Shown here piece by piece: positions 1,849 through 22,000 of a stretch of DNA of 27,709 nucleotides. Source of the DNA: an uncultured Thermotogae bacterium (lineage in GTDB: Bacteria; Bipolaricaulota; Bipolaricaulia; UBA7950; UBA9294); assembly GCA_964551625.1 (NCBI GenBank), contig CAZKDW010000001.1, positions 13,115 through 40,823 of the forward strand. Reading direction: 5' to 3'. Under the pieces are notes generated by a model that saw only the letters and a program-made list of their open reading frames with translations, searched no databases and was not told the DNA's origin. How positions within the stretch are numbered: position 1 is the stretch's first letter; the number at the start of each line of letters is the position of its first letter. Position numbers and translations under genes: made by a program.

Positions 1849-1861
1849 CAATTCACCGCCT

Positions 1862-3236: not shown

Positions 3237-4835
3237 CTAGACTTCTTCGTATAAACCCTTGATCGCCTTCTTGTCGATTTTCCCGGTCTCGGACCGTGGG
3301 ACACTGTCCACGATCACGATCTTCCGAGGCTTCTTGAACGACGCAAGACGTGAGCCCACGTATTCGAGAATCTCATCTTCGGTGATTGTCTCACCCGGTT
3401 TGGGGACGATAATCGCCTTGGGGGTCTGTCCCCATTGTGGATGGCTTCCTCTCACGACGACTACGTCACTCACTTTCTCATAGCTGAAGATCACACGCTC
3501 GATTTCAGAGGGATAGATGTTTTCTCCACCACTGACGATCATGTCGTCGGTGCGACCGAGAACGTAAAAGTATCCGTCTTCGTCAGCCTTGCCAAGATCT
3601 CCGGTAAAAATCCAATCCCCACGGAACTTCTTCGCTTCATCCTCAGGACGATTCCAATAGCCAGCTGCCCCGGTGGGCTCGCGTCGGATGATAATCTCAC
3701 CACACTCACCCGCAACGACTTCTGCTCCGTGCTCATCGACAATCCTCACCTCAACGAATGCTGGCGGTTTGCCCATACACTCACTCGCCTTGCTGAGAGT
3801 TGGATCCTCAGGTGATGACGCTGGCCAGTTGAATCCAGTTGCTCCGGTCTCAGTCAATCCATAGCCACTCACGTAGGTAATCCCTTGATCAATGAACGCT
3901 TGCTTGAGCTCGGCTGGTTGCGGTTCACCACCACCGTTAACTGCTCTAAGGGATCCAACATACCCCTCCCAACCAACCGTTTGCACCATCATCTTGAGCT
4001 GTGTGGCAATCCCGAAGTGGTAGGTCACACCATATCGCTCGATGAGCTCAAGCGCTTCCTGCGCTGACCACCGCGGCTCCAGAACGATTGAGCCGTTAAT
4101 CATGAGCATGTAGAGCTGGAAACACGTCAACCCACCAGCATGGAACATCGGCGGCGCGCCAAGATAAACATCGTCTCGCGTCAGCGAAGCTGAGATGCCA
4201 TTCGACAAGCAAGCAAAGAAGGTACTTCTGTGCGTTAGCTTGACGCCTTTGGGACGCCCGGTTGTTCCCGCGGTGAACAGGATCATGCTCGTCTCGTCAG
4301 GCGCTGTGATACAGCCCGGCTCTTCTTCGGGAAGCCCACTCAGCAGATCCTCGTAGGCTTTTGAGCCATCCAATTGCTGCACTCCAACTTCTACCAGCGT
4401 GCGCAATCCACTATTCAGCGAGACGATCTCCTGAACCTTCTGTGCATACTCGGAGTCGAAAACTAGAATTGTCGAGCCCATATCGTCGATCAGAAACAAG
4501 ATCTCCTCAACTGAGAAGCGGAAGTTCGCCGGAGTAAATACTGCCCCGATCTTGAGGCATGCATATAGAACCTCTAGCGTCTCTGAGCGATTTGGCATCA
4601 GCACGAAAACACGGTCACCCTTCTCAACGCCCTGAGACATCAGTGCATGGGCAAGGCGATTAACGCGGCGGTTGAGATCTTGATACGAGACTCGTTCATT
4701 GCCAACTCGACTGGTATCGATCACTGCAGTCCGATCGGGGAATCCTGACTGCGAGGCGTTTCGCGCCAGGATATTCCCGAGGTTATACACCGTATCCTGC
4801 GAGGGATAGACCGTGCCACCCATTGCTGTACCCAT
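3237..4835 (-). CDS. Acyl-CoA ligase (AMP-forming; fatty-acyl-CoA/MenE-like ANL family)
   Basis: ILFTAGTTGRPKG P-loop, YGLTETG, TGDLG, GRTDDMIVSGGENIYPSEIE, PRSETGKI. ATG 4835 is best spaced from AAAGGAG; GTG 4841 is an alternative start. Confidence 0.93.
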   Translation of the reverse strand: MGTAMGGTVYPSQDTVYNLGNILARNASQSGFPDRTAVIDTSRVGNERVSYQDLNRRVNRLAHALMSQGVEKGDRVFVLMPNRSETLEVLYACLKIGAVFTPANFRFSVEEILFLIDDMGSTILVFDSEYAQKVQEIVSLNSGLRTLVEVGVQQLDGSKAYEDLLSGLPEEEPGCITAPDETSMILFTAGTTGRPKGVKLTHRSTFFACLSNGISASLTRDDVYLGAPPMFHAGGLTCFQLYMLMINGSIVLEPRWSAQEALELIERYGVTYHFGIATQLKMMVQTVGWEGYVGSLRAVNGGGEPQPAELKQAFIDQGITYVSGYGLTETGATGFNWPASSPEDPTLSKASECMGKPPAFVEVRIVDEHGAEVVAGECGEIIIRREPTGAAGYWNRPEDEAKKFRGDWIFTGDLGKADEDGYFYVLGRTDDMIVSGGENIYPSEIERVIFSYEKVSDVVVVRGSHPQWGQTPKAIIVPKPGETITEDEILEYVGSRLASFKKPRKIVIVDSVPRSETGKIDKKAIKGLYEEV

Positions 4836-4868
4836 TCTCACGTCTCCTTTCTAGCAAGCGAATCCGGA

Positions 4869-5477
4869 TTATGCAATCGTTTCGTCCAGTGTCTTCTCTA
4901 GCAGCCAAGCAACGTTTTCTGCAAAACGTACCACCGTCTCAATGCCCTCTGTGTCCTTTGCAGCATCTCCGACTGAACGGGCAACTCCGATATTCCAATA
5001 GGTTGAACCGGGAACAATAAACTCATTAATGTTGAACCAGAGAAGAAGCTGTGCGAAGGCAAAATTCTGTCCCGCACGCCGGGCAACAGCAATCGGGCCA
5101 CCTATTTTGCGTGCAAACGGACGGGGAAGGCTGTGTGGGTGCCCGGCCATGCCTGGGAATCCTGCACGGACAAGCAACGACCACACATCCGGATGAACAG
5201 CGCTGTAGTGGACAGGTGAGCCAACGAGGATCGCATCTGCTACCAGCATCTTCTCGTAGATTTCGTGAAAGTCATCTCCCGCGACCTGGCATACCCTTGG
5301 GGTAGCGTTCCAGCAGGCATAGCACGCTTGGCAACTCTGAATCGTCTTATCGTGAAGTACCACCGATTCTGTGCGAATTCCCTTATCTCGCAACGTACCC
5401 ATCGCTACGTCGAGATACGCAGCGGAATTGCTGTCAAGCCGTGGACTTCCACAGATAGCCAGCGCCTGCCGACTCAT
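4869..5477 (-). CDS. Iron-sulfur flavoprotein (Isf; flavodoxin-like fold)
   Basis: GSPRLDSNS FMN loop, CQACYACWNATPRVC (CX2CX2CX7C), DAILVGSPVHY, VARRAG, PGSTYWN. Confidence 0.88.
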   Translation of the reverse strand: MSRQALAICGSPRLDSNSAAYLDVAMGTLRDKGIRTESVVLHDKTIQSCQACYACWNATPRVCQVAGDDFHEIYEKMLVADAILVGSPVHYSAVHPDVWSLLVRAGFPGMAGHPHSLPRPFARKIGGPIAVARRAGQNFAFAQLLLWFNINEFIVPGSTYWNIGVARSVGDAAKDTEGIETVVRFAENVAWLLEKTLDETIA

Positions 5478-5500
5478 TGTTCACTCCCTTCAATACCTGC

Positions 5501-6202
5501 TCAAAGCCCCAGATAGGCTCGCTTCACGTGCTCGTTGCCAAGCAGCTCGTCAGACGGTCCCTCAAGCACAACCTCACCTGTTTCAATCACATACCCGCGA
5601 TCGACGGCATGCAGGCTTTGCCGGACATTTTGCTCAGCCATCATGACTGACATCCGCTCACTGATGCTTCGCAATGTGTGGAATAGCTCCGTCACCAACG
5701 AAGGCTGAAGCCCAAGCGACGGCTCATCAAGAATAAGGAGCTTGGGCATGGACATTAGCGCACGGGCAATCGCCAGCATTCGCTGCTCCCCACCGCTCAA
5801 CGTCCCTGCGAGTTGCCGTGCACGGTCGTTCAGAATCGGGAACATCTCATACGCGGCATCAAGGGATTTCGCCATGTGCTTGTGTGCTGCCGGGATGTAG
5901 GCCGCGCCGGATTCTAGATTTGCACGAACCGACATGAACGGGAACAACTCGCGTTCTTGTGGCACCACAGCAATTCCAGCACGAATGATCTGATGCGTTG
6001 ACAGGCGAACCAGCGACGAGCCTTCGAAGCTAATTTCCCCACTCTTGGGTCGGACCAGCCCAACAATGGCATTAACCAATGTGGTCTTCCCCGCACCGTT
6101 TGGGCCGAATACGCCGACAGATTCATTTCCGATTTCCAACGACAGGTCTCGAAGGACGTGCGCCTTGCCGTAGTACTGATTAACCTTGGAAATGCTGAGC
6201 AT
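5501..6202 (-). CDS. livF: HAAT/Liv-type ABC transporter ATP-binding subunit
   Basis: GPNGAGKTT, LSGGEQRMLAIARALM, LILDEPSLGL, C-terminal AYLG. The symbol is a family label only; the substrate is not established. Confidence 0.93.
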   Translation of the reverse strand: MLSISKVNQYYGKAHVLRDLSLEIGNESVGVFGPNGAGKTTLVNAIVGLVRPKSGEISFEGSSLVRLSTHQIIRAGIAVVPQERELFPFMSVRANLESGAAYIPAAHKHMAKSLDAAYEMFPILNDRARQLAGTLSGGEQRMLAIARALMSMPKLLILDEPSLGLQPSLVTELFHTLRSISERMSVMMAEQNVRQSLHAVDRGYVIETGEVVLEGPSDELLGNEHVKRAYLGL

Positions 6203-6918
6203 TACTCCTCCTCTCCAAGATAGGCCGTGATCACTTGGGGGTCTGCAGACACGTCCGCATAGGGCCCCTCAGCGATAATCATCCCTCCATTTAAAACGAT
6301 GACTCTGTCTGTCAGCTCGCGGATGACGCTCATCACGTGCTCGACAACGCAAATAGCCACCCCTTGACCGCGAATCGCCTTAACAGATGAGACCATGTCC
6401 TTCGTCTCATCGCTATTCAAACCGGCCATCACTTCATCAAGGAAAAGTACGCTGGGACGAGAAGCTAAGGCACGCCCAATCTCAAGTTTTTTGATCTCAA
6501 GAACTGTGAGATTTGAAACATCTCGATCCATCTCACTCAGCTCAAGCAGTTCACCGATCTCATTAGCAATCCTACGCGCCTCACGCAAGCCAACTCGCTG
6601 TCCGAAGAGAGCGCCAACCATGATATTCTCCTGTGCGGTGAGATCCTCTAGAGGCTGAACTAGCTGAAACGTTCGCCCAATCCCCAAGCGACATCGAACA
6701 TAGGCAGGAGCCATAGTGATCTCCTTGCCGCTGAGGTAAATTCGACCCTCATTGGGCATGTATAGACCGGAAATGACATGGATGAGCGTCGTCTTGCCAG
6801 CGCCGTTCGGGCCGATAATCCCGAGGATTTCGTCCTCCCCCAAACTGAAGGTCACATCACTCAACGCCACCAGACCGCCGAAACGCCGCGTAAGAGATTC
6901 AGTCGTCAAGACAGCCAT
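6202..6918 (-). CDS. livG: HAAT/Liv-type ABC transporter ATP-binding subunit
   Basis: FGGLVAL, GPNGAGKTT, GIGRTFQ, LFLDEVMAGL, VVEHVM, VITAYLG. TAATG overlap with livF. GTG 6921 is an alternative start. Confidence 0.93.
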   Translation of the reverse strand: MAVLTTESLTRRFGGLVALSDVTFSLGEDEILGIIGPNGAGKTTLIHVISGLYMPNEGRIYLSGKEITMAPAYVRCRLGIGRTFQLVQPLEDLTAQENIMVGALFGQRVGLREARRIANEIGELLELSEMDRDVSNLTVLEIKKLEIGRALASRPSVLFLDEVMAGLNSDETKDMVSSVKAIRGQGVAICVVEHVMSVIRELTDRVIVLNGGMIIAEGPYADVSADPQVITAYLGEEE

Positions 6919-7018
6919 CACTCACACCCCCCATCATTACTCGCACTCAAGCGACACAGCAGCCATTGCGCTCCGATTTGTTCATTTTCTACCGCATATC
7001 TATTGGCTACGCCGACCA

Positions 7019-7954
7019 TCAGCTACCACGTCCCGATTGAAATTGGCGAACTCTCGCCCTCAATGCGCCCACGAATCCTTGCGGAAGGAACAGTGTCACC
7101 AAAACAATGATCCCGCCATAGACCAATAGATGTCCGTAGGGAATCTGCAGCTTTAAGTATTCGCCAAGAACGCCGAGAACGAGTGCTCCAACAACGGGTC
7201 CCCACGTGCTGTGAACGCCGCCAAGCAAAGCCATCGCCAGAGGAAGAAGCAGGAAGTTAGCATTGAAACTTCCCTCAGGAGATACAAATCCATAAACATG
7301 GGCGTAGGCTCCACCGGCTATTCCCTGAAGAACAGAGGTAACCGCGAACACGAACACGAGATACCAGAAGACATGAATGCCACTCGATTTGGCCACACGT
7401 TCGTCGTTACGGATCGAGGTCAAGGCAAGACGAATTCTAGTATGCTGGAACACTTCCGACATCCCAATCGCAAGAATAGCAACACCCAATGCGAGCCAAT
7501 AGACCTGCGTGGTATTCCCGTTGAAAACGCACGTCGGGAGCATCATCCCTTCTGGCCCGCCAGTTAAGCTAGGAATGTTGCGCACAACTACAGTAAAAAT
7601 GCTAGCAAGCGCAAGCGTGGTAATTGCGAAGTACATGCCTCGCAATCTTAGAACCGCCAGACCAACCAATAGAGCGACAACTCCCGCAAAGACACCTCCA
7701 AGCAGGATGCTAGTGATAGGATTGACACCCACATTGAGGAAGAGTAGCACGGCCGCATAGCTTCCCAATCCAAAAAAACCGGCTGTGCCGAAGCTGAGTT
7801 GTCCTGATCGAAGCAACATGTCCCAGCTCAGCGCTAGCGTCATGTAGATCAGCGTCGTGACAGCCACTTGCTGTGTATAAGCCCCCGAAACAAGCGGAAA
7901 TACCGCGGCCAACGCCGCCCCTAAAGCATAGCCAATATATCTTGAGTTCCTCAT
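7019..7954 (-). CDS. livM: HAAT/Liv-type ABC transporter permease
   Basis: GQLSFGTAGFFGLGSY, LRLRGMYFAITTL, LTGGPEG, multiple TM helices. Confidence 0.92.
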   Translation of the reverse strand: MRNSRYIGYALGAALAAVFPLVSGAYTQQVAVTTLIYMTLALSWDMLLRSGQLSFGTAGFFGLGSYAAVLLFLNVGVNPITSILLGGVFAGVVALLVGLAVLRLRGMYFAITTLALASIFTVVVRNIPSLTGGPEGMMLPTCVFNGNTTQVYWLALGVAILAIGMSEVFQHTRIRLALTSIRNDERVAKSSGIHVFWYLVFVFAVTSVLQGIAGGAYAHVYGFVSPEGSFNANFLLLPLAMALLGGVHSTWGPVVGALVLGVLGEYLKLQIPYGHLLVYGGIIVLVTLFLPQGFVGALRARVRQFQSGRGS

Positions 7955-8886
7955 ACCACGCGCCTCCGGTACGATCTCGTCATGATCACTGCGACCAGTA
8001 CAGCAAAGAACACGACGTCAGCCCAGCCGCCGTACCCCCGGAAGGACAGCACAAAGGCTTCTGCAATGCCTAGCGCGAAGCCTCCCCAGACAACGCCTGG
8101 CAGGTTGCCAATGCCTGCCATCGCGATCAAACAAAATGACTTCATTGTGAAGGGAGAGCCGACCGCCGGAAACACCGAATGTCGTGTGAGGAACAGGGCG
8201 CCAATCGCCCCTACCAACGCGATCGATATACTAAAAATTAACATGTACGTTCGATTCACGTCAATACCAACTAGCTTCGCTCCGCGCGGATTCTGGCCAA
8301 CTGCAAGCGCTGCTTTGCCTAGCCGCGTACGGCGCAAGAATAGAAGCAATCCAGCAAGCAGGACGAGCGCAGCGCCGGTATAGACAAACGCGTATGTGCC
8401 GAATCTCAATGAGCCGAGGCTTATGGACGAATACACGTAGCTCAGATGCGGTTTGAGAGGACGCGAGGTCCACATCAGGTTGGCAAACTGCGCCGCCATC
8501 ATGGCCAGTCCGAATGTCAGCAGTAGTTGATTCAGTTCCGGTGCCTTTAGAGCACGGCGGATTGTCAACAAGTAGGTAGCCGCTCCGATCAGCGCAAACA
8601 CTGCCAGCGCTGGAATAATCGCCACGAGTGGATCCAATCCCGTGTAAACGCCTAGCCAATAGGCAAAATAAGCTCCCAACATCATGAACTCACCATGAGC
8701 CAGGTTAATAATCCCCACAATCCCAAGAATCAGCGCCATTGGCAATGCAATAAGCGAGTACACGCCTCCACGCTGAATGCCCTCAATCAGCGCATATGGC
8801 TTCCAAACTGCCAACAGCACCAACACAATCATCGACACGAGGGCTGTCACATACCGTCTTTGTTGCAGCTTGCGAAGCAATGTCAT
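7951..8886 (-). CDS. livH: HAAT/Liv-type ABC transporter permease
   Basis: GIINLAHGEFMMLGAY, LLLTFGL, AVGQNPRGAKLVGID, AMAGIGNLPG. Start placed at ATG 8886 (GGGGTG RBS) because the longer track start runs through a hairpin. ATGA overlap with livM. Confidence 0.9.
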   Translation of the reverse strand: MTLLRKLQQRRYVTALVSMIVLVLLAVWKPYALIEGIQRGGVYSLIALPMALILGIVGIINLAHGEFMMLGAYFAYWLGVYTGLDPLVAIIPALAVFALIGAATYLLTIRRALKAPELNQLLLTFGLAMMAAQFANLMWTSRPLKPHLSYVYSSISLGSLRFGTYAFVYTGAALVLLAGLLLFLRRTRLGKAALAVGQNPRGAKLVGIDVNRTYMLIFSISIALVGAIGALFLTRHSVFPAVGSPFTMKSFCLIAMAGIGNLPGVVWGGFALGIAEAFVLSFRGYGGWADVVFFAVLVAVIMTRSYRRRVV

Positions 8887-8908
8887 GTCACCCCAATCCC
8901 TTGTTGCC

Positions 8909-8937
8909 GGACCGGCTCGGCAACGCCGAGCCGGTCC
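8909..8937 (-). other. Perfect 13-bp GC-rich stem-loop between the binding-protein and permease genes
   Basis: GGACCGGCTCGGC-AAC-GCCGAGCCGGTCC; no long U-tract follows on the sense strand. Confidence 0.8.
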
Positions 8938-8967
8938 ATGCATATCTAGCCCATATCGGGCGTTCTT

Positions 8968-10185
8968 CTATCGGCCAGTGTACGGGAAGTGCGGCAATGC
9001 TGTGGCGAACTCGAACGGCCACAGAATTTGCTGCGAACCATCCTGCCACTGGAGGATCTTCTGCCCCTGGAATCCCTGGTGCTCGATCAGGTTCGAAGGA
9101 GTGAACGTCAGAGTTTCGCCAAGCGGCGAATCATACGACGTCTCTTCCAAGGCGGCAATTAGTGCCTCTTTCTCCAACGTGCCAGCGCGGGTGATAGCTT
9201 CTGCGACAACATACACGTTCGTATAGCCAAGCGGTGCAAAATACGTCGCCGGCTCTTCTTCGTGCATCTCGATGTATGCATTCCAGAAATGGTCGCTGAC
9301 CGGGCTGATATTCCTCATCGACGGCGCCCACATGCCATAGGCGACAACGCCTTCCGCTAGCGGGGATTCGCCGAAGTCAGCTGGCCAGCCAGGAGGGGAC
9401 CCAACAAACAATGAAGGAGCAAAGCCAATCTCGCGCGCCTGCTCCATAATCGGAAGTGCGTCTGCGCCATATCCAACCCAGATGAAGATATCTGGATCGA
9501 TTTCCTGTGCGTGACGCAGGACGGAGCGATAGTCGCCACCACCAAACACAGCACTCTTGAACGACTCACCGACGTTGTCCCAGGCGTCATGGGCAACTAG
9601 ACTACCAGCGTATGATCCGCTCCCAAACGCGCCCTCTTCATAGGCCCAGAAAGCAGTTTTAATGTCGATCAGCGGATACTGTGCTGAAATGTCAGCCCAG
9701 CCCTGCACGTAACTGCCACCCTGAAGATAATCCCAGGGATGAAGGTGGAAGTACCAATCTTCACCTTCCATCGCTTCCTCAACGAGCGACGAGGCCGCGC
9801 CGGCCCAGACCGTAACCTTTTCATACTTCTTCAGCGTCGGGATTTCTCCAAGATGGACGCCGCTGCTCATTCCACCAATAAAGATGTCGACTTCATCGAC
9901 TGTTGCCAGTCTGTCGATCGCCGCCGCACCCTTGGCTGCATCGAATTCACTATCGATGACAATCAGTTCCAGCTGGCGTCCGAGGATACCGCCAGCCGCG
10001 TTAATCTCGGCGACTGCCAGTTCCATCGCTTTCGTACTCTGGGCACCTGTGATATCGCCGAGCGGATTGACCGCACCAAGCTTGATGGGGCCTTCCTGCG
10101 CAACCGCAATGAAGACCAAGCCGACAATCATGACGGCTGCAAGAATTCCTACCTTAAGAAATGATACTTTGCCTTTGGTACTCAC
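8968..10185 (-). CDS. HAAT/Liv-family (type I periplasmic) substrate-binding protein
   Basis: PIKLGAVNPLG, MELAVAEINAAGGILGRQLELIVID, AYTNVYVVAEAITRAG-like C-terminal helix. Signal peptide ending AVA-QE. GTG 10185 follows GGGAGG; ATG 10209 is an alternative start. Confidence 0.9.
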   Translation of the reverse strand: MSTKGKVSFLKVGILAAVMIVGLVFIAVAQEGPIKLGAVNPLGDITGAQSTKAMELAVAEINAAGGILGRQLELIVIDSEFDAAKGAAAIDRLATVDEVDIFIGGMSSGVHLGEIPTLKKYEKVTVWAGAASSLVEEAMEGEDWYFHLHPWDYLQGGSYVQGWADISAQYPLIDIKTAFWAYEEGAFGSGSYAGSLVAHDAWDNVGESFKSAVFGGGDYRSVLRHAQEIDPDIFIWVGYGADALPIMEQAREIGFAPSLFVGSPPGWPADFGESPLAEGVVAYGMWAPSMRNISPVSDHFWNAYIEMHEEEPATYFAPLGYTNVYVVAEAITRAGTLEKEALIAALEETSYDSPLGETLTFTPSNLIEHQGFQGQKILQWQDGSQQILWPFEFATALPHFPYTGR

Positions 10186-10273
10186 TCTAACCTCCCTGAT
10201 ATTGTTCATTCAGTATTCGCCGAATTCGCCCGTTCGTTGCTAGGTATCACCTCCTGATAGGATTTGCAAAGTT

Positions 10274-11104: not shown

Positions 11105-11909
11105 ATTCGCCCACCTTCTGTTGCGTATCTTGCTGTCTTGTGGTCTTCAGTCGTCCGTCCGCCAGCTGCTCGCGCACCAAGTCCGCAAACGTACTGTCAG
11201 CAAAGCATTCGGAAAATCGGTCGGACTCCACACTCAGACCGGCTGCAAAGGGCAGGTGCTGCGATGCGTAGATCGCCTGTTTGGCGGCAGTGAACGCATG
11301 TGCGGAGATGGCCTTCGTTCGCTCGGCTAACGCTGAGGCTCGATTCTCGACGTCTGCGGAGGCAACCATCTCATGGATCAGCCCAGCGTTCAGTGCTTCG
11401 CGCGCTTTGTACAATCTTCCAGTGAGGATCATCTCGGTGGCTCTGCCGATGCCGATCACGCGTGGCAAACGCTGTGTTCCACCACCCCCGGGGATAATGC
11501 CAAGCTTCACCTCGGGTAGGCCGATCCGCGACGCATCACTCGCCACTCGCAGATCGCAGGCCAAGGCGAACTCCAGTCCACCACCGAAACACAATCCATC
11601 AATTGCTGCAATCAGCAACAATGGACTTGCCTCCATGAGGTTGAATAACCCTTGAATACGAACCGAGAAGTCACGCGCCTCAGCAGGAGACAGTTGAACC
11701 ATCTCAACTCCGTCCGCTCCGCCGATGAAATGCGTCTCGCCAGCACCCTGATAGACGATCGCGCGAGCACCAGACGCTTCAGCAACCTCAAGATGCCCCT
11801 GCAACTGCACGAGAGTCTCGGAGTCCAACGAATTTCGGTCTCCTGGACGATTGATGGTCACCCAATGGACATCATCCGCTTCGCGAATCACTAGGTTCGA
11901 GAATCCCAT
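11091..11909 (-). CDS. Enoyl-CoA hydratase (crotonase family)
   Basis: FIGGAD oxyanion loop, CFGGGLE and LPEVKLGIIPGGGGTQRL with both catalytic Glu present. ATG 11909, or GTG 11948 overlapping the upstream stop. Confidence 0.92.
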   Translation of the reverse strand: MGFSNLVIREADDVHWVTINRPGDRNSLDSETLVQLQGHLEVAEASGARAIVYQGAGETHFIGGADGVEMVQLSPAEARDFSVRIQGLFNLMEASPLLLIAAIDGLCFGGGLEFALACDLRVASDASRIGLPEVKLGIIPGGGGTQRLPRVIGIGRATEMILTGRLYKAREALNAGLIHEMVASADVENRASALAERTKAISAHAFTAAKQAIYASQHLPFAAGLSVESDRFSECFADSTFADLVREQLADGRLKTTRQQDTQQKVGEYGDI

Positions 11910-11947
11910 GCTTACTCGATGTCCTTCGCCCCGGTGTCTCTCGTCCA

Positions 11948-12718
11948 CTAGATCACCAAGCCTCCATTCGGACTGAGCACCTGTCCGGTGAAGAAGTCAG
12001 CTCCTGGACTGGCCAGAAACCAGATGAGTTCGGCGATCTCTTGCGGCAATGCAAATCGCTTCAGCGGAGTCCGTCGCACAATTTGCTCCTTGAACCGGTC
12101 ATCCATTGCATCAAGCAGTGGCGTTTGTACATATCCCGGGGCAACCGCGTTGACTCGCAAGTTGTACCGTGCCACTTCCCGGGCAAGCGTCTTGGTCAGC
12201 TGGACCACGCCCGCCTTGCTTGCACTGTAGTGAAGTGCTCCAGGAGTCGGCATAAGCGCCGAGACTGAGCTAAGGTTGACGATCCGGCCGCATTTATATC
12301 CCTTCATCCAACGCACCGCTTCACGACAGCAGTAGAACGTACCGCTCAGAGTGACGCTGATCATTCGATCCCATTGGTCGTCAGTCATGTCTTCTATGAA
12401 CGTTGCCGCATCGAGAATACCCACACTGTTCACTAGGAGATCAAGCCGCTCGCAGCGATCCTGGAGGATGCCGAACAGCGCAGCGACCTGCATGCTGTCC
12501 GAGACGTCAGTTCGATACGCCTCCGCCTTGCCTCCGTCGCGCACAATCTCCGCAGCAACTTGTTTCGTGCACTCAAGATCTACATCGGCAATGAAGACGC
12601 GCACGCCGTCGCTAGCCAGTCTCATGGCCACCGCACGCCCGATTCCTGATGCGCCACCAGTCACTAGGGCGGTTTCGCAGATGTAGGTCTTCGTCACTTC
12701 CTTCATTTCCGACATCAC
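11948..12718 (-). CDS. Classical SDR oxidoreductase (FabG-like, predicted NAD(H)-preferring)
   Basis: TGGASGIG, IADVD (acidic residue at the end of beta2), NSVG, LSS, YSASK, VNAVAPG, DGG-like NGG tail. Confidence 0.9.
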   Translation of the reverse strand: MMSEMKEVTKTYICETALVTGGASGIGRAVAMRLASDGVRVFIADVDLECTKQVAAEIVRDGGKAEAYRTDVSDSMQVAALFGILQDRCERLDLLVNSVGILDAATFIEDMTDDQWDRMISVTLSGTFYCCREAVRWMKGYKCGRIVNLSSVSALMPTPGALHYSASKAGVVQLTKTLAREVARYNLRVNAVAPGYVQTPLLDAMDDRFKEQIVRRTPLKRFALPQEIAELIWFLASPGADFFTGQVLSPNGGLVI

Positions 12719-13464
12719 GCCTCCAGGAACCTGTTGTACGCTTTCTTCGACTGCGCTGTTGGGAAGATGACGAACGGTTCCTTCCCCATCTGCTCAATCG
12801 TTCCTTCGGCCACGTCCTCGGCAGAGTCCATGTGCCCGCGTAGCCGATCAGCGACTTGGCTCATCGCCTCAGCGCCAACTCCGACTCCGAAGAACCCGGT
12901 ATCCGTCAAATGTGGGCACACGACCTGGACGGAAATGTCTGAGTCCTCAAGTTCTCGTCGAAGCCCTCGACTCATTCCTACCACCGCATGTTTGGCTGCC
13001 AGATAGGCCGAAACGTTCGGTGCGTGAGCAATCAATCCACCAGTGGAAGCAATGTTGACGATCATCCCATGCCCAGCATCCCTCATCGCGGGAAGCACCT
13101 GCTGAGTCATCCGGAAGACTGCGATGACGTTCACATCGAATAATGAGCGCAGATCGGACTCCTCTATTTCGTTGAACGGCGCATAAAGTCCGAATCCCGC
13201 GTTGTTGATCAGAACATCGATCCGCCCCCACTCATTAAGGACATGCTCGACGAGTTGTCGACGTTCGTCGTCGTTACTCACGTCACACGGGATCGTCAAG
13301 GTCTCACCCGCACATGAACCAGCAACCTTGGCCAACTGCTCGGCGCGACGCGCGGCGAGAACCACGCGAGCCCCTCGTTTCGAACAGGCGACAGCCAGTG
13401 CGGCACCAATCCCGGAACTGGCTCCGGTGATGATCACGGTTTTCTCCGTCAATCGATTCGTCAT
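12715..13464 (-). CDS. Classical SDR oxidoreductase (predicted NADP(H)-preferring)
   Basis: TGASSGIG, AARR, NNAG, IAS, YLAAK. ATG 13464, or GTG 13470. Confidence 0.88.
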   Translation of the reverse strand: MTNRLTEKTVIITGASSGIGAALAVACSKRGARVVLAARRAEQLAKVAGSCAGETLTIPCDVSNDDERRQLVEHVLNEWGRIDVLINNAGFGLYAPFNEIEESDLRSLFDVNVIAVFRMTQQVLPAMRDAGHGMIVNIASTGGLIAHAPNVSAYLAAKHAVVGMSRGLRRELEDSDISVQVVCPHLTDTGFFGVGVGAEAMSQVADRLRGHMDSAEDVAEGTIEQMGKEPFVIFPTAQSKKAYNRFLEA

Positions 13465-13491
13465 CCGCACCTTCCGCCTCGGTTCATGCTC

Positions 13492-14772
13492 CTAGAATCC
13501 ACCGTATGCCTCACGCTCCCATTCCATCTCGGCGTTGGAGTAGAGCTCGTACGTCCCTGCTCCGAATACGCTGTTCAACGCCTGAGCTGTCGGCTCATCC
13601 GATGCCTCAGCGAACGCAGCGATAAGCTGCATCGTTTCAGCCGGATGATGAATCGGAAAGCCATGGTCGTAGCCATGGTCTGCATGAAGCATGACCGCGG
13701 TCACCGTCGCGCCCGCGCGTCGCAAGTCGTACTTGGTGTTCTTCGTGATGGAGTCATCGATGACCAGATCGCCCCGCCATGAGGTTCGATCCGTCTGTGC
13801 CTTGACCAGAAGAACCCGCTTCCCTTCGAAGGCTGCCGTTCGATCTGCCCCTGGGATCGAGACTGAGGTCCCGTCACGATTCGTGTGTTGAAGGATGCTG
13901 GAAGTCGCATTGAAGCGATGGCTCGCATACAACGATTCAGGCATGTAGACGGTGGACAACACATCCTCGATTGCGTTCAAGTACCCCGAATTGTCCAAGT
14001 ATGTTGGTTCTTTGGCGATCCCTAGCAGCGGATCGAATTTGAGCACATCGTTAAAGACAACCATGTTCCAAATGACGGACGCATTCTTGGCGGTGCGATT
14101 CTCTCCACCCCATGATCTCTGATGAAAGGCGACTGCAGATTGCGAGTCAGCCCAGTCTCCAGTGCTGTACGACAACCCAGTCTCTGGATCGTCGCCGACC
14201 GTGTTACCGGCGAATAGCACACGAACACCGCGCGTTCCAATACCGGCAAGAGAAACGATGCCTGAATACTTTGAGGGATCGAGGTCAACCATCAATTGAG
14301 CCACACCGAATCCCATCGAGTGGCCGACAAGAGTGATGTTCCCGGCCTGTAGAAGCGGATCAGTTTGAACGATATCGGCGAAGTCTCGGGCAAAATCATC
14401 AAGGGATTCAATCGGATGCACATAGGTGGAGCCACCACTGCCACGGTAGTCAAAGGCGTAGAACGTGTATGCTTCTCGAATCTCCTTGGTCGCTTCTACG
14501 AGCGCAAGAAGAGGTTCGAAGCTACGCCCGGAGCAGTTGTTGCCAGCAAGAAGCACCACAGGCGAGGGCCCGCAACCGGCCATCCTCACATGAATCGTCT
14601 CGCCACTACTCACCTGAAACAGCTGGGCCTCCTTCGATTCCTGTACATCCTGTCGCCCGCATGACGCAAGAAGAACCGCGCACAGCAGTCCGGCCGCTAG
14701 GACTCTACCATACTGCCTTTGCGAGGGCACTCTCGGCATGTTGTTCATCCATTCAACGATCCTTCGCTTCAC
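13492..14772 (-). CDS. Predicted lipoprotein alpha/beta hydrolase (esterase/depolymerase-like)
   Basis: Basic n-region, hydrophobic stretch and lipobox LLAS-C (Cys codon 14659-14661). DYRGSGGS, GHSMG (14311-14325), GDLVI, DHG. The start could also be ATG 14748 or 14739. Confidence 0.82.
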   Translation of the reverse strand: MKRRIVEWMNNMPRVPSQRQYGRVLAAGLLCAVLLASCGRQDVQESKEAQLFQVSSGETIHVRMAGCGPSPVVLLAGNNCSGRSFEPLLALVEATKEIREAYTFYAFDYRGSGGSTYVHPIESLDDFARDFADIVQTDPLLQAGNITLVGHSMGFGVAQLMVDLDPSKYSGIVSLAGIGTRGVRVLFAGNTVGDDPETGLSYSTGDWADSQSAVAFHQRSWGGENRTAKNASVIWNMVVFNDVLKFDPLLGIAKEPTYLDNSGYLNAIEDVLSTVYMPESLYASHRFNATSSILQHTNRDGTSVSIPGADRTAAFEGKRVLLVKAQTDRTSWRGDLVIDDSITKNTKYDLRRAGATVTAVMLHADHGYDHGFPIHHPAETMQLIAAFAEASDEPTAQALNSVFGAGTYELYSNAEMEWEREAYGGF

Positions 14773-15510
14773 CTACGTGATCAGACCGCCGTCGACGCTC
14801 AGCACAGCACCATGAACGAATGCCGCTTCGTCGGACGCGAAGAAGAGGTAGATGTTGGCGACATCGCGCGCACTACCTAGGCGTCCAAGTGGCGTTTTGC
14901 TACGCATCAAATCGAGCACCTTCTCTGGCACGCCTTCAGTCATTTCTGTTTGAATGAATCCCGGGGCAACTGCATTCACGTTGATCCCCTTCTTTCCCAA
15001 TTCACGTGCCCAGACCTTGGTCATACCAATGACGCCCGCTTTGGTAGCAGCGTAATTCGTCTGTCCAAAATTGCCATATAGCCCGACAACTGACGACACA
15101 TTGATGATTCGACCGCTGCCCTGCTCAATCATGTGCGGGACCACTGCTTGGGTTGTGTTGAATGTCCCCTTCAAGTTGACATCTACGACCAGATCGAAGT
15201 CAGCTTCTGTCAGCTTGACAAGTTGGCCATCGCGAACGATGCCTGCGTTGTTCACCAAGATGTCAATTCGTCCGAATTCCTTCACTGCCGAGCTAGCCAT
15301 CGCTTGACACGTTTCTCGATCAGTGACATCCGTTCGAATGAACAGCGCCTTGCCGCCACCGGCCACAATCTCCGCAGCGACTGTCTCAGCATGGCTATCC
15401 ACGTCAGCCACGACAATCTTGGCACCCTCGCTGGCGAACAACAGTGCCGCTTCTCGACCAATTCCCCGGCCTGCTCCAGTAATAACGGCAACTTTCCCCT
15501 CTAAACGCAT
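14773..15510 (-). CDS. fabG: 3-oxoacyl-(ACP/CoA) reductase, FabG/PhaB-like SDR
   Basis: TGAGRGIG, VADVD, NNAGIVRD, SSVVGLYGNFGQTNYAATKAGVIGMTK, VNAVAPGFIQTEM, SVDGG. ATG 15510 follows GGAGGAG. It may act on CoA esters rather than ACP. Confidence 0.88.
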   Translation of the reverse strand: MRLEGKVAVITGAGRGIGREAALLFASEGAKIVVADVDSHAETVAAEIVAGGGKALFIRTDVTDRETCQAMASSAVKEFGRIDILVNNAGIVRDGQLVKLTEADFDLVVDVNLKGTFNTTQAVVPHMIEQGSGRIINVSSVVGLYGNFGQTNYAATKAGVIGMTKVWARELGKKGINVNAVAPGFIQTEMTEGVPEKVLDLMRSKTPLGRLGSARDVANIYLFFASDEAAFVHGAVLSVDGGLIT

Positions 15511-15526
15511 ACGCAACTCCTCCCTT

Positions 15527-16546
15527 CTAAACCCATCGGAACAGCGCCGTTGATAGAACGAAGCCCGCTCCCGATGTACAGAACGCCACCAGATCTCCTG
15601 AAACGATTCGGCCTTGCTCAAGCGCGTCATATAGCGCCATGAACACCGACGCAGAACCGGCGTACCCGAACCGATCGGCTACCCAGTGTGTTTTCTCCAT
15701 CGACAAACCCAGCTTTTCCAGCGTTGCTGTTACAGTTCCTAGTTCAACCTGATTCATCAGAACCAGCTTTAGTTCGTCGGGTGTATGGCCAACCGCCGCC
15801 ATCGTCTTGCGCAGCAGGTCAGGCCAGCGCGCAATATTGAAGTCAGCCGGGACGCGATGTGCGTTTTCGTGAAATCGAAGATACTGTTGCCCCGTCTCGA
15901 TCATGTCTGCAGTTGGCGGCCGGCCGGTCCCAAGATAGATACCGTACGTGTCCCAATAGCTCCCTTCAGTCAGCATCTTGGAGGAGAGGTAGCCATCCTC
16001 CTCCGACGGAGAAAGAACAACGGCTCCGGCACCGTCACTGAACAGCATTGAGAGAACCTTGGACGCGGATTCGCTGTAGGGTCTCCAGTCAAGCCATTTC
16101 GTCATTCCGTATGCCCCAATAACCATGACGTGATTAATCGCCGGATCGAGTGCGATATAGTGAGATCCGATTGCCAATGCTATTGTCTCATCAGTACATG
16201 CAGCGTTAATGTCAAACACTCCTGCATTCGTTGCGCCCAACTTGTGCTGGATTACCGCTGATGTCGGTGGACTGATGAAGTCCGGGGTGTCCGTGGCAAG
16301 GATGATCAGATCAAGGTCATCAGGCGTCAGCCCCGCACGTTCTAATGCTTCGCGGGCCGCGTGAACCGCCATGTCAGATGTTGCTTCATCTGCGGCAGCA
16401 CGATAGCGAACGCCGATTCCCTTGCCGTCAAGATATGACTCGACGTCGTAGTTCATCATTTCGCCCAGTTCTGCGTTCGTAATCCTCTCTTGAGGAAGAT
16501 ACATTCCCACGCCTGAGATTCTTGCGGCTCTGATCTGCTTCTCCAT
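15527..16546 (-). CDS. KAS III (FabH)-fold protein with non-canonical active site
   Basis: ISGVGMYLP, ATDTPDFISP, DINAAC (Cys117), LFSDGAGAVVL, FCTSGAG. The HQAN site reads NQVE and the GNTS site reads GYAG. Confidence 0.85.
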   Translation of the reverse strand: MEKQIRAARISGVGMYLPQERITNAELGEMMNYDVESYLDGKGIGVRYRAAADEATSDMAVHAAREALERAGLTPDDLDLIILATDTPDFISPPTSAVIQHKLGATNAGVFDINAACTDETIALAIGSHYIALDPAINHVMVIGAYGMTKWLDWRPYSESASKVLSMLFSDGAGAVVLSPSEEDGYLSSKMLTEGSYWDTYGIYLGTGRPPTADMIETGQQYLRFHENAHRVPADFNIARWPDLLRKTMAAVGHTPDELKLVLMNQVELGTVTATLEKLGLSMEKTHWVADRFGYAGSASVFMALYDALEQGRIVSGDLVAFCTSGAGFVLSTALFRWV

Positions 16547-16548
16547 AC

Positions 16549-16998
16549 CTATTCAGTCCTCTCTTCGGCTAGAATCACGGTCGCTCGTCCATCTCGAAGA
16601 ACCTCAGGGCGAGGTTCAAGCCTCATACCTACCTGAATTGCATCAGCGGGAATACCACGGATCCATCCCATAACACGAAGTCCGTTGTCCATTTCCACAA
16701 TGCCCACTGGAGAAGGCTGATACGCGTACGATGAACATGGCGCGGTTCTCGACAAGTCCGGTGTGAAATGCTCTGGGGTGACGAACACGGTGGTGTATGA
16801 CAGCAACCGTCCCGTACCAGTTACGCACACCCATCCGAACTCAGTACCGAAACAATCGGGGCAGTCGCTCCGAGGCGGGTACTGGATCTTCCCACACGTC
16901 TCACATTTGGAGCCGAGCAGCTCTCCCCGTTCGAGACCATCCACAAATCCGCTGACCTTTGTATCTTGAACCAATAAACTGAAGTCTTTGAATTCCAT
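16549..16998 (-). CDS. DUF35 Zn-ribbon/OB-fold protein (thiolase partner)
   Basis: CETCG...YPPRSDCPDC, GTGRLLSYTTV, VGIVEMDNG. ATG 16998 follows GGGAGG; GTG 17004 is an alternative start. Confidence 0.92.
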   Translation of the reverse strand: MEFKDFSLLVQDTKVSGFVDGLERGELLGSKCETCGKIQYPPRSDCPDCFGTEFGWVCVTGTGRLLSYTTVFVTPEHFTPDLSRTAPCSSYAYQPSPVGIVEMDNGLRVMGWIRGIPADAIQVGMRLEPRPEVLRDGRATVILAEERTE

Positions 16999-17009
16999 TC
17001 CCACCTCCC

Positions 17010-18170
17010 TTATGAGCGACTGAAGACATGCACAGCTGAATGCTGGCCATTGCCACCGACGTTATGCGATAGACCGATTTCAGCGCCCTGAACCTGACGT
17101 CCGGGATCTGCTTCTCCACGCAATTGCTTGGCAATCTCCACTGCCATCGAAACACCTGTGGTGCCAATCGGATGACCTTTTGACTTGAGCCCGCCATCGA
17201 CATTGACTGGAGTCTCTCCACCGATGTAGGTCTGCCGATCCTCGACCCAAGGGCCACCTTCACCTCTCGGGCAGAAGCCCAGATCCTCGTAAGCCACAAT
17301 TTCAGCGATCGTGAAGCAATCATGGACGACGGCCACATCAACCTGTTTGGCGTCAATTCCGGCCATTTCATAGGCCTGATCAGCCGCTTCGACTGTCGCA
17401 CCAAGCGTGGTCAGATCATCGCGATGAGCCAGCGCTAGCGAGCCAGTCCCTAGGCCGAGGCCACTCATCCAGATTGGATCCTTGCTCAGACGTTTGGCCA
17501 TCTTCTCAGACGCGAGCAAAATGGCAGCCGCTCCGTCGGAGATCAGGCAGCAGTCGTATAGCTTGAGGGGGTCGGCGACCATGAAAGAGTTCATTGCCTT
17601 TTCAAGGGTAATCTCTTTCTGCATGTGGGCGTACGGATTCATCGCGCCATAGTGATGGTTCTTCACCGCGACAGCCGCAAGTTGTTCTTGCGTCGTTCCA
17701 TACTTCGCCATATGCGCGCGGGCAATCATTGCGTAGTAGCCGGGGAATGTCATGCCGAAGGGATATTCCCACAGGAAATCGCCGGCGCGGCCAAGCACTT
17801 CGGTCGCCATGGACGTCGGGACCTCTGTCATCTTTTCAGCGCCAACAACCAAAACGAGGTCGGCTAGGCCAGATGCGATATTCATCCATCCGGCGCGAAC
17901 CGCCATGCTACCAGACGCACATGCAGCCTCTACGCGAAAGCTCGGTTTGGGGTGAAATCCAAGATAGTCGACAACCTGAGCCGTCGGTTGGAGAGCAAAA
18001 CTAAGCTCATCCGAAGCTACACTGACAATCATCGACTCCACATCCGCCAATGGAATGTCAGCATCCTCAAGGCAAGCCTTCACCGCCTCGAATGCCAGTT
18101 CACGCAGCGACGCATCGGATCGAATCCCGAAGCGGCCTTGCCCAACGCCAATGATTCCGACTTTCCCCAT
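17010..18170 (-). CDS. Thiolase, SCP2/archaeal type
   Basis: VEAACASG (Cys84), VGAEKM, AVKNH, ISDGAAA, HDCFTIAE, NVDGGLKSKGHPIG, HNVGG. AAGGAG RBS. Confidence 0.93.
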   Translation of the reverse strand: MGKVGIIGVGQGRFGIRSDASLRELAFEAVKACLEDADIPLADVESMIVSVASDELSFALQPTAQVVDYLGFHPKPSFRVEAACASGSMAVRAGWMNIASGLADLVLVVGAEKMTEVPTSMATEVLGRAGDFLWEYPFGMTFPGYYAMIARAHMAKYGTTQEQLAAVAVKNHHYGAMNPYAHMQKEITLEKAMNSFMVADPLKLYDCCLISDGAAAILLASEKMAKRLSKDPIWMSGLGLGTGSLALAHRDDLTTLGATVEAADQAYEMAGIDAKQVDVAVVHDCFTIAEIVAYEDLGFCPRGEGGPWVEDRQTYIGGETPVNVDGGLKSKGHPIGTTGVSMAVEIAKQLRGEADPGRQVQGAEIGLSHNVGGNGQHSAVHVFSRS

Positions 18171-18229: not shown

Positions 18230-18250
18230 TGACACCTGACTCAGGTCTCA
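18230..18250. promoter_or_regulatory. Candidate TetR operator 1
   Basis: TGACACCTGACTCAGGTCTCA, a near-perfect 21-bp palindrome that touches the -10 box and covers the predicted transcription start of the thiolase operon. Confidence 0.8.
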
Positions 18251-19698: not shown

Positions 19699-19778
19699 GT
19701 CTGTTTCCTTCCTCACTATCTGGACCGGGGTCTCTGAGTAGCTAATCTGTGGATGACCCATCATCCCAACACCAACGA

Positions 19779-21916: not shown

Positions 21917-21958
21917 GTCGGATGGACATGCAGCAGTTGTCCATTTGATCGAACATTG

Positions 21959-21989
21959 CGGGGGCGGCTCGTCCGTCCCCGTTCTTATT
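21959..21989 (+). terminator. Terminator/attenuator-like hairpin between acs and the MFS gene
   Basis: CGGGGGCGG-CTCGT-CCGTCCCCG (9 bp, one G.U pair) followed by TTCTTATT. Confidence 0.55.
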
Positions 21990-22000
21990 GGAGGGTTGGT

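Follow-up and report, generated by a model that had tools for sequence, protein, structure and literature searches.

A conserved 16-gene operon of Bipolaricaulota with a probable beta-oxidation-like role and a new thiolase-fold component

Introduction

The subject of this study is a run of 16 genes, g1 to g16, on the minus strand of a 27,709-nt stretch of DNA (contig CAZKDW010000001.1, assembly GCA_964551625.1, hereafter the window) from an uncultured bacterium of the Bipolaricaulota lineage. In our reading, these genes probably form a catabolic operon akin to beta-oxidation, whose new thiolase-fold component is the protein g3, which resembles beta-ketoacyl-ACP synthase III (KAS III; ACP, acyl carrier protein). 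The initial annotation of this DNA knew of no characterised operon with such a composition, and our literature searches for the gene combination gave nothing; neither was a paper found that describes the operon or the g3-type KAS III-like clade. Several described systems resemble parts of it.

The closest, or nearly the closest, solved relatives of the thiolase g1 and the DUF35 protein g2 are subunits of the archaeal thiolase/HMG-CoA synthase (HMGCS)/DUF35 complex (6esq_A, 8e-77, and 6esq_E, 1.9e-10). The three-gene layout is also the same, because a third gene of the thiolase superfamily follows g1 and g2 with junctions of 2-5 nt. However, the third protein is FabH-like here and not an HMG-CoA synthase, and the archaeal complex belongs to a mevalonate context whereas the genes of the present trio lie in an operon with an importer and a ligase. 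The fatty acid synthase of Sulfolobus acidocaldarius is assembled from a ketothiolase/DUF35 pair, a FabG-like reductase, a MaoC dehydratase and a medium-chain dehydrogenase/reductase (MDR) that serves as enoyl-CoA reductase (bioRxiv 10.1101/2024.07.05.601840). It shares with our locus a thiolase/DUF35 pair beside a FabG-like short-chain dehydrogenase/reductase (SDR) and a hydratase, which handle CoA esters without ACP. The archaeal reductase is specific for NADPH, whereas the motif VVADVD of g4 predicts an NAD-type enzyme. The operon would thus point in the opposite direction, because it has NAD-type SDRs, a crotonase in place of MaoC, no MDR, FabI or FabK as enoyl-CoA reductase, and in addition an importer, a ligase and hydrolases.

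The Friedel-Crafts acyltransferases PhlACB and SmaATase (PDB 5M3K and 9VBO; PMC6392133, PMC12960953) are likewise trios of a KAS III/HMGCS-like protein, a DUF35 protein and an SCP2-type thiolase. They demonstrate that such trios can be repurposed, and PhlC matched g1 at 1e-34. PhlA, however, has a Gly in place of the catalytic Cys, and catalysis takes place in PhlC (PMC6392133), whereas g3 keeps its Cys in 84 of 84 loci. The match between PhlB and g2 was marginal (0.0016 to 0.9), and the operon has no phl-type neighbours. With FabH, BioZ and PqsD, g3 shares the fold, the nucleophilic Cys and an S-G-x-G motif that stands, throughout the g3 family, where FabH has its G-G-G loop; the differences from FabH are described below. 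To judge by sequence, g1 and g2 belong with the archaeal thiolase/DUF35 pairs, and the trio mimics the layout of both the thiolase/HMGCS/DUF35 complex and PhlACB but fails to show the features of their third subunit.

The degradative side has its own counterparts. Anaerobic fermentation of poly(3-hydroxybutyrate) (PHB) and of 3-hydroxybutyrate is known, for example, from Ilyobacter delafieldii. The route proposed below has in common with classical beta-oxidation and 3-hydroxybutyrate fermentation that the acid is activated to its CoA thioester, acted on by a 3-hydroxyacyl-CoA dehydrogenase and cleaved thiolytically to acetyl-CoA, and that acetate is a product. Unlike them, the operon has no acyl-CoA dehydrogenase (ACAD) and carries SDR-type instead of HAD-type dehydrogenases. 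The 3-hydroxybutyrate fermentation uses a CoA-transferase, whereas here a ligase and an ATP-binding cassette (ABC) importer are found, with the KAS III-like protein, DUF35 and an iron-sulfur flavoprotein (Isf)-like protein as extra components. Finally, the PHB depolymerase PhaZ of Bacillus (8YNV; NF050089) has a Ser-Asp-His triad, a G-x-S-x-G elbow and a fold like those of the hydrolase g5, the fold of the latter being predicted. PhaZ is intracellular, in contrast to the exported lipoprotein g5, which carries some 100 additional residues and whose activity on PHB is putative.

Layout and conservation of the operon

The list of open reading frames (ORFs) of the window contains 16 consecutive minus-strand ORFs from 18170 down to 3237, and with adjusted starts their junctions range from a 14-nt overlap to a 97-nt gap. 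The starts of g4 (15510), g5 (14739) and g11 (8886) were taken from relatives; for g4 and g11 this is an internal Met that fits the product lengths in relatives, and for g5 it is Met12, as in the exactly matching protein P0121. Only 5, 2 and 16 nt separate the closely spaced genes g1 to g4, and no convincing terminator was found within the operon. The window proteins were assigned to families with Pfam and NCBIfam, which confirmed each gene family named in the initial annotation, as the ORF list confirmed its 16 co-oriented genes with overlapping or short junctions.

Relatives were surveyed by tblastn across genomes, giving 80 species-representative loci; residues of g3 were compared in 84 loci and an upstream palindrome in 88. 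A genome scan for g3 relatives found at least 582. The g3 protein was 75-85% identical to proteins of Candidatus Bipolaricaulota, and the operon without g5 was syntenic, with identities of 60-82% for the individual genes, in Ca. Bipolaricaulis anaerobius (Ran1), whose 1.0-Mb genome is closed, and in four more species representatives, labelled Bipolaricaulota, Acetothermia or Thermotogae, of which two have contigs that stop inside the operon and one (L007) has a different cytoplasmic hydrolase and reaches no importer. The 16 genes are a real, conserved block, probably one operon, whose gene order is kept across genomes. The claim that the genes are conserved together was thus borne out by block synteny within Bipolaricaulota and by a neighbourhood search around the KAS III-like gene.

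Outside the phylum, clusters in Dehalococcoidia and Chloroflexota contain the KAS III-like protein, a g9-type hydrolase, a binding protein, LivHMGF and a ligase at 53-66% identity, and a Bathyarchaeia locus was found at 57% identity. A more distant clade, at 39-49% identity, comprises Anaerolineae, Myxococcota, Bdellovibrionota, Acidobacteriota, Caldiserica, Hodarchaeota and Heimdallarchaeota; in 33 of its 40 loci with full flanks a ligase lies on the same strand at most 4 kb away. The core found across phyla is therefore an importer, an AMP-forming ligase, an alpha/beta hydrolase and the KAS III-like protein, and the latter persists with its three partners even where thiolase, DUF35, SDRs and crotonase are missing. 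Clusters outside the phylum also vary in what is added to them, be it a MaoC hydratase, a further hydrolase, an FMN_red protein or a PETase-like secreted protein.

The KAS III-like protein g3

The best conserved element of the operon is g3 (15527-16546, minus strand), to which the initial reading of a complete degradation route assigned no role. A profile search of the PDB matched it to FabH at 2.7e-64, and FabH was also the top Foldseek match (1.8e-35, TM-score 0.81-0.90, about 30% identity) of an AlphaFold2 model with a predicted local distance difference test (pLDDT) score of 88.5. Cys117, which corresponds to the nucleophile Cys112 of E. coli FabH, was invariant in all 84 loci. In the same 84 loci, the position of FabH His244 was occupied by Asn or Thr (Asn265 in g3) and that of Asn274 by Tyr (Tyr295 in g3). 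Arg249, whose role in FabH is ACP docking, was lost in every locus; the FabH segment HQANLRI aligns with NQVELGT, which places a Gly at the Arg. A TDTPD motif and His287, both nearly invariant across the family, and a family-specific insert at 205-245 further set g3 apart from FabH.

In 2000, Davies et al. reportedly found that the H244A and N274A mutants of FabH retain transacylation and lose decarboxylation. Because the decarboxylation His and Asn are replaced in all loci, g3 is not a FabH-type condensing enzyme, and we ruled out that it is an ordinary FabH. These residues suggest that g3 should still be able to form an acyl-Cys from acyl-CoA, without FabH-style decarboxylation of a malonyl thioester. 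HMG-CoA synthase was ruled out as well, since g3 reached 72.9 and 51 bits against cut-offs of 244 and 353 and aligned over its N-terminal ~140 residues only; accordingly, the HMGCS subunit 6esq_I matched at 7e-11 over residues 10-129 only. PhlA was rejected because the Cys is kept, and it was not among the 60 best PDB matches. By sequence, the g3 family appears to be one of uncharacterised FabH-like enzymes in hundreds of bacterial and archaeal genomes.

We offer, as a speculation that we think improbable in its full form, that proteins with this combination of Cys, Asn or Thr, His and Tyr are a new functional class of the thiolase superfamily, tied to the ligase, which would cleave or transacylate the product of the ligase in a CoA-dependent way without decarboxylation and, in Bipolaricaulota, dock onto the thiolase/DUF35 pair. 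An example of such a reaction would be the thiolysis of a CoA-activated oligo-ester of hydroxy acids to two acyl-CoAs, with a saving of one ATP for each ester bond. If true, g3 docked on the pair would represent, for the first time in bacteria, a catabolic equivalent of the channelling complex that thiolase, HMGCS and DUF35 form in archaea. The assignment also matters for annotation, since the family is routinely auto-annotated as '3-oxoacyl-ACP synthase III'. Because its members cannot be expected to work like FabH, they would be misread as evidence of fatty acid synthesis in metabolic reconstructions, including those in the debates on archaeal lipids. To our knowledge, archaea, where g3-type members also occur, are reported to lack ACP.

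Some relatives have more than one such gene. In the Hodarchaeota cluster L023 there is, at 14948-16396, a second KAS III-type gene with a small MaoC hydratase behind it; the KAS III-type protein reached 404 bits where the cut-off of PRK06840 is 315. This cluster also holds a second ligase. Three Anaerolineae loci (L037, L060 and L068) have two KAS III-type genes and two ligases each.

Thiolase, SDRs and crotonase, and the direction of the pathway

The first gene, g1 (17010-18170, minus strand), encodes an SCP2/archaeal acetoacetyl-CoA-type thiolase that scored 518 bits against the cut-off of 420 for NCBIfam PRK06064. Besides 6esq_A it matched the solved structure 7yvy (5e-85), and the catalytic residues are present (the nucleophilic Cys in AACASG, the Cys in HDCF and the His in GHP). 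Its partner g2 (16549-17004, minus strand) has the Pfam zinc-ribbon and OB-fold domains zf-ChsH2 and OB_ChsH2_C, and the solved chain closest to it is the DUF35 subunit 6esq_E.

Three SDRs follow. In SDRs an acidic residue at the end of beta2 indicates NAD, and AARR indicates NADP. The FabG-like g4 (14773-15510, minus strand) is of the NAD type, with an Asp at the beta2 end in VVADVD, and an Asp or Glu is kept there in nearly all of 36 orthologues and neighbours. The classical SDR g7 (11948-12718, minus strand) is also NAD-type (FIADVD), as are nearly all its orthologues, which carry Asp or Glu at this position, while the classical SDR g6 (12715-13470, minus strand) is NADP-type (VLAARR). None of the three looks like a FabI-type enoyl reductase, because all have the YxxxK motif. 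The hydratase g8 (11091-11948, minus strand) is a crotonase-type enoyl-CoA hydratase with both catalytic Glu residues (GGGLE and LPEVK); in the clusters of other lineages a MaoC hydratase takes the place of the crotonase.

The operon thus holds a ligase, an enoyl-CoA hydratase, a putative 3-hydroxyacyl-CoA dehydrogenase of the SDR type and a thiolase, each with its catalytic motifs. Pfam and NCBIfam found no ACAD, ACP, malonyl-transferase or FabI/K/L/V-type reductase in the window, and neither an acyl-CoA dehydrogenase nor an electron-transfer flavoprotein was found in the window or the syntenic loci. These absences, the NAD-type SDRs and the intact crotonase and thiolase favour catabolism, as do the importer, the ligase, the acyl-CoA-type TetR regulator and the divergent acetyl-CoA synthetase (Acs) and carboxylate transporter. 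The logic proposed initially, in which import and activation with CoA are followed by hydration, dehydrogenation and thiolysis, fits the NAD-type SDRs, the catalytic residues of crotonase and thiolase and the lack of an ACAD.

Hydrolases, importer and ligase

The only direct lead on the substrate of the operon is g5 (13492-14739, minus strand), an exported lipoprotein alpha/beta hydrolase with the lipobox LLASC that is remotely PhaZ-like. The triad of Ser152 (in GHSMG), Asp335/340 and His370 is invariant in its family. The best curated family was NF050089, the intracellular depolymerase of short-chain-length polyhydroxyalkanoates (PHAs) of Bacillus (1.3e-22), at 80.2 bits against a cut-off of 300. 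The best PDB sequence match was PhaZ of B. thuringiensis (8ynv, 1e-10), and the top six Foldseek matches of the predicted structure (pLDDT 85.9) were PhaZ (8ynv and 8ynw; 1.5e-19, TM-score 0.82), which led generic esterases by about five orders of magnitude. Homologues of g5 were found between g4 and g6 at 63-67% identity in further Bipolaricaulota contigs (L087 and an ENA contig), but the gene is absent from Ran1 and from 80 of 80 species-representative loci. It is an accessory yet stably integrated member of the operon. The capture of an external ester, which had been proposed as part of the complete route, is therefore supported by the best characterised relative of g5 in NCBIfam, PDB sequence and predicted-fold searches, but since g5 is confined to a subclade it is an add-on and not the core. 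The proposed PHA-type substrate stands on the same ground: PhaZ is the nearest characterised relative of g5, and the similarity is remote. In L007, a different alpha/beta hydrolase, which is cytoplasmic (11784-12569), occupies the slot held by g5 in the window, and hydrolases seem prone to be exchanged at this site behind the FabG-like gene.

The second hydrolase, g9 (10274-11104, minus strand), is cytoplasmic, PcaD/esterase-like by Pfam and NCBIfam, and part of the conserved core; its orthologues adjoin g3 at 53-77% identity in Bipolaricaulota and Dehalococcoidia. No substrate could be read from the core hydrolases, which matched generic PcaD/esterase-like families only.

Other hydrolases accompany g3 relatives. 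In at least 14 distant loci (Anaerolineae, Caldiserica and related), a 354-aa cytoplasmic alpha/beta hydrolase with the motif HGNFSS lies directly beside the KAS III-like gene (for example L019:7901-8965, L025:8831-9895, L029:8882-9931 and L044:8923-9972). Its best NCBIfam match was NF050089, and the PDB search tied PhaZ with C-C hydrolases that act on meta-cleavage products. A secreted protein of the PETase family (PF12740) is encoded upstream of the importer/KAS III-like/ligase cluster in L085 (1-1776, minus strand) and in the Bathyarchaeia locus L018 (144-1814, minus strand); the two proteins are 65% identical and are accompanied by a beta-propeller of the pyrroloquinoline quinone (PQQ) type and an enlarged binding protein. 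At the end of the clusters L019 (17846-19150) and L020, the latter labelled Caldiserica, lies a gene resembling that of butyryl-CoA:acetate CoA-transferase, which scored 297 bits where the cut-off is 675; a 48% identical copy is present in L073.

The genes g10 to g14 (5501-10209, minus strand) encode a Liv-type ABC importer of the hydrophobic amino acid uptake transporter (HAAT) family, with the Peripla_BP_6 binding protein g10 (8968-10209), two BPD_transp_2 permeases (7951-8886 and 7019-7954) and two ABC ATPases (6202-6921 and 5501-6202). All Liv and Urt equivalogs were far below cut-off, for example LivJ with 45 against 477. Single-sequence and profile searches of the PDB with g10 gave remote LivJ-like matches only, so that g10 did not identify the substrate. 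The g10 family is very strongly conserved across phyla (mean column identity 73%), with the motifs HPWDY and PPGWP, yet none of the solved HAAT binding proteins is close to it. Its ligands may belong to a class of their own.

The last gene, g16 (3237-4841, minus strand), encodes an AMP-forming acyl-CoA ligase that NCBIfam places near PRK06187, and its orthologues (61-66% identity) terminate the Dehalococcoidia/Chloroflexota clusters. All ligases of the clusters fell into this subfamily below the cut-off. The best solved relative of g16 was the feruloyl-CoA synthetase 8wev (7e-89), compared with 3.5e-75 for FadD13; as a guide to the substrate we set g16 aside, since the NCBIfam match was at subfamily level and below cut-off and the PDB match is suggestive only. 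Between the ligase and the importer lies g15 (4869-5477, minus strand), an Isf-like FMN_red protein (PF03358, 1e-17) with the N-terminal four-Cys motif CxxCxxCx7C (C48-x2-C51-x2-C54-x7-C62), for which Fe-S binding is predicted. The gene is kept in L002, L005 and L086.

Proposed route and alternative explanations

We consider it probable that the operon imports an organic acid, attaches CoA and cuts the product to acetyl-CoA. The overall explanation that we prefer is that these genes are a catabolic operon, under regulation, in a Bipolaricaulota-like bacterium that is a fermenter or an acetogen, and that they work by the mechanism below; we put it forward tentatively, at somewhat less than even chances. 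What was observed is the presence and the motifs of the parts, and each step beyond them we infer. In the lineage that has it, the exported esterase g5 would attack an ester or polyester outside the cell and free small hydroxy acids, as monomers or oligomers, which the HAAT-type importer would take up. The hydrolase g9 would trim esters in the cytoplasm and g16 would form the CoA thioester, which the crotonase and the NAD-type SDRs would convert to 3-oxoacyl-CoA. No acyl-CoA dehydrogenase would be needed because the proposed substrate already has a 3-hydroxy or 2-enoyl function. The thiolase/DUF35 pair would then release acetyl-CoA, and g3 would act on the product of the ligase by acyl transfer or thiolysis, without decarboxylation. 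Acs, reversed on the AMP and PPi derived from the ligase, could convert acetyl-CoA to acetate and ATP, with the acetate leaving through the monocarboxylate transporter. This would offset the cost of activation; reportedly, Syntrophus aciditrophicus offers a precedent for the reversal of Acs on AMP and PPi.

Esters of PHAs or 3-hydroxyalkanoates are a possible substrate, on which we would not bet. In addition to g5, this substrate is supported by the recurrence in the clusters of FabG-like SDRs and MaoC hydratases, which are partners of the (R)-specific type, by the 354-aa hydrolase with NF050089 as best match and by the PETase-like protein of the Bathyarchaeia cluster, while the butyryl-CoA:acetate CoA-transferase-like gene of Caldiserica-type clusters supports catabolism as such. 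If the proposal holds, it describes an ACAD-free uptake and cleavage route for the carbon of hydroxy acids and esters in Bipolaricaulota, Dehalococcoidia, Anaerolineae, Bathyarchaeia and Asgard archaea, groups that are abundant in digesters and anoxic sediments and whose substrates are mostly guessed from annotation. The operon also offers a system in bacteria where the association of a thiolase/DUF35 pair with a third protein of the thiolase fold could be put to the test.

Several points weigh against this explanation. No enzyme of the operon falls in a substrate-specific curated family, and the matches of the hydrolases, ligase, SDRs, crotonase and binding protein to such families are below cut-offs. 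In addition, g4 is narrowly above the cut-offs of NCBI for FabG (304 against 296 and 300.6 against 297.75). The g5 protein is only 18-20% identical to PhaZ and missing from most relatives, and the cytoplasmic 'PhaZ-like' hydrolase ties with C-C hydrolases. An ABC importer and an AMP-forming ligase are costly in energy for a fermenter on C4 monomers, and three SDRs exceed the need of a single 3-hydroxyacyl oxidation. A plain 3-hydroxyacid route leaves the KAS III-like protein without a step and the Isf-like protein without a role. Moreover, characterised thiolase/DUF35 pairs favour condensation (bioRxiv 10.1101/2024.07.05.601840).

The same catabolic architecture might serve another substrate, either aryl-propenoates such as ferulate, coumarate and cinnamate, or another hydroxy acid, enoate, lactone or beta-keto acid; we regard this as rather unlikely. 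Aryl-propenoates would undergo CoA-dependent beta-oxidative deacetylation, with ligase, hydratase and SDR steps, cleavage of the aryl-beta-ketoacyl-CoA by the KAS III-like protein or the thiolase, and then a thioesterase, a route that likewise needs no acyl-CoA dehydrogenase. The match of g16 to feruloyl-CoA synthetase, the PcaD/esterase-like core hydrolases and PETase-like and esterase neighbours compatible with plant polyesters are consistent with it. So is the thiolase/DUF35 pair BbsAB, which cleaves an aryl-ketoacyl-CoA (7pxp, 8e-56 against g1), and KAS III and type III polyketide synthase folds, such as PqsD, often accept aromatic acyl-CoAs. HAAT binding proteins of the CouP family of R. 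palustris bind aromatic acids. However, g10 is far from the aromatic-acid binding proteins, with 4evq and 4ey3 matching at only 1e-4 to 1e-9, and the crotonase is nearest to short-chain enoyl-CoA hydratases instead of hydratase-lyases, as the thiolase is to acetoacetyl-CoA thiolases. The sole exported enzyme of the window points to PHB depolymerase and not to feruloyl esterase. A beta-lactone or olefin pathway like OleABCD, in which the KAS III-like protein, hydrolase, ligase-like protein and SDR would be OleA, OleB, OleC and OleD in a head-to-head condensation, is hardly credible, even though these four superfamilies recur together around g3 across phyla and OleA of X. campestris (3row, 4kti) is detectable against g3 (1e-9 with the single sequence, 1e-21 with the profile). 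FabH, BioZ and PqsD are far nearer (2.7e-64 for FabH by profile), the ligases are acyl-CoA ligases of the PRK06187 type, OleD proteins are SDRs of the 3beta-hydroxysteroid dehydrogenase type whereas those of the operon are FabG-like, and Ole chemistry has no role for the importer, thiolase and hydratase.

The operon could instead run in the anabolic direction, as an ACP-independent chain elongation like archaeal fatty acid synthesis. An imported short acid would be activated and undergo condensation, for which either the KAS III-like enzyme or the thiolase/DUF35 pair would be responsible; the product would be reduced by the FabG-like SDR, dehydrated by the crotonase, reduced again and released by the hydrolase. 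We find this doubtful. It would agree with the archaeal affinity of g1 and g2 and with the S. acidocaldarius synthase, which is built on such a pair (bioRxiv 10.1101/2024.07.05.601840), with the FabG scores of g4 and the tight coupling of g1 to g4, and the retention of the operon in a 1.0-Mb genome would fit a salvage or biosynthetic need. Against elongation, g4, g7 and their orthologues are NAD-type, unlike the strictly NADPH-dependent archaeal reductase; the second reduction has no MDR, FabI, FabK or Ter-type enoyl-CoA reductase to perform it, with YxxxK in all three SDRs; the hydratase is a crotonase instead of a MaoC protein, the type that is (R)-specific; the decarboxylation residues are missing from the KAS III-like protein; and Acs and a carboxylate transporter stand alongside. 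A cultured Bipolaricaulota strain has canonical FabD/H/F/G/Z/K (bioRxiv 10.1101/2025.11.21.689855), which also speaks against elongation, and this type II pathway together with the accD of the window weakens the idea that the operon is the only fatty acid synthase of the organism. Very unlikely, in our view, is a mosaic of an ordinary branched-chain amino-acid importer, the annotation given to the transporter in Ca. Bipolaricaulis anaerobius, among unrelated genes of lipid metabolism. The published model of Ran1 (Ca. Bipolaricaulis anaerobius) labels such ABC systems amino-acid importers (PMC6092417), and Liv and Urt are the models that the transporter subunits match best. These matches are far below the equivalog cut-offs, though, g10 is remote from every solved LivJ/K, and in Dehalococcoidia, Chloroflexota, Caldiserica, Bathyarchaeia and Hodarchaeota, where the other genes differ, the importer is still found next to the ligase, the hydrolase and the KAS III-like protein.

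Regulation and neighbouring genes

Upstream of the operon, a 17th co-oriented gene (18463-19764, minus strand) encodes a fusion regulator of 433 aa with two Pfam TetR_N domains in one chain. Its nearest NCBIfam models were regulators of the FasR, FadR and ScbR type, all below cut-off. The neighbourhood check that had been proposed for the KAS III-like protein and the tandem TetR found the regulator next to the operon in six of eight close loci with full flanks. In the 292 nt upstream of g1 there is one sigma-70-like site, a candidate promoter (18279-18250, minus strand; TTGACG-18-TATGGT), followed by a candidate operator (18234-18246, minus strand), the perfect 13-bp palindrome ACCTGA-N-TCAGGT, which is the sole copy with zero mismatches within the window. 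A single promoter/operator had been proposed, and one site of each kind is indeed present, but they are candidates only because promoter-like sites were not enriched over shuffles and the palindrome was found in 0 of 88 loci of relatives.

Divergent from the regulator lie genes for an AMP-forming Acs (19958-21916, plus strand; NCBIfam 921 against a cut-off of 657) and a major facilitator superfamily monocarboxylate transporter of the SfMCT ('L-lactate') type (21956-23272, plus strand; 381 against 320). The divergent placement of Acs recurs in L087, whereas Ran1 does not have it. Housekeeping genes make up the flanks (accD, DUF502, SLT, oligoribonuclease, a PALP enzyme, ribokinase and nucleoside hydrolase), and Rfam and tRNA scans of the window were both empty. 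The AccD-type carboxyltransferase, which has a zinc ribbon, is encoded at 1006-1851 (minus strand), and the organism therefore probably makes malonyl-CoA and has an ordinary fatty acid synthesis apart from the operon. Two records of the same Ca. Bipolaricaulis anaerobius region (L001:8307-9952 and L002:8751-9952) differ in their gene calls, with a thiolase of 395 against 247 aa and a DUF35 protein of 46 against 148 aa, a discrepancy that hints at frameshifts or misassembly in at least one of them.

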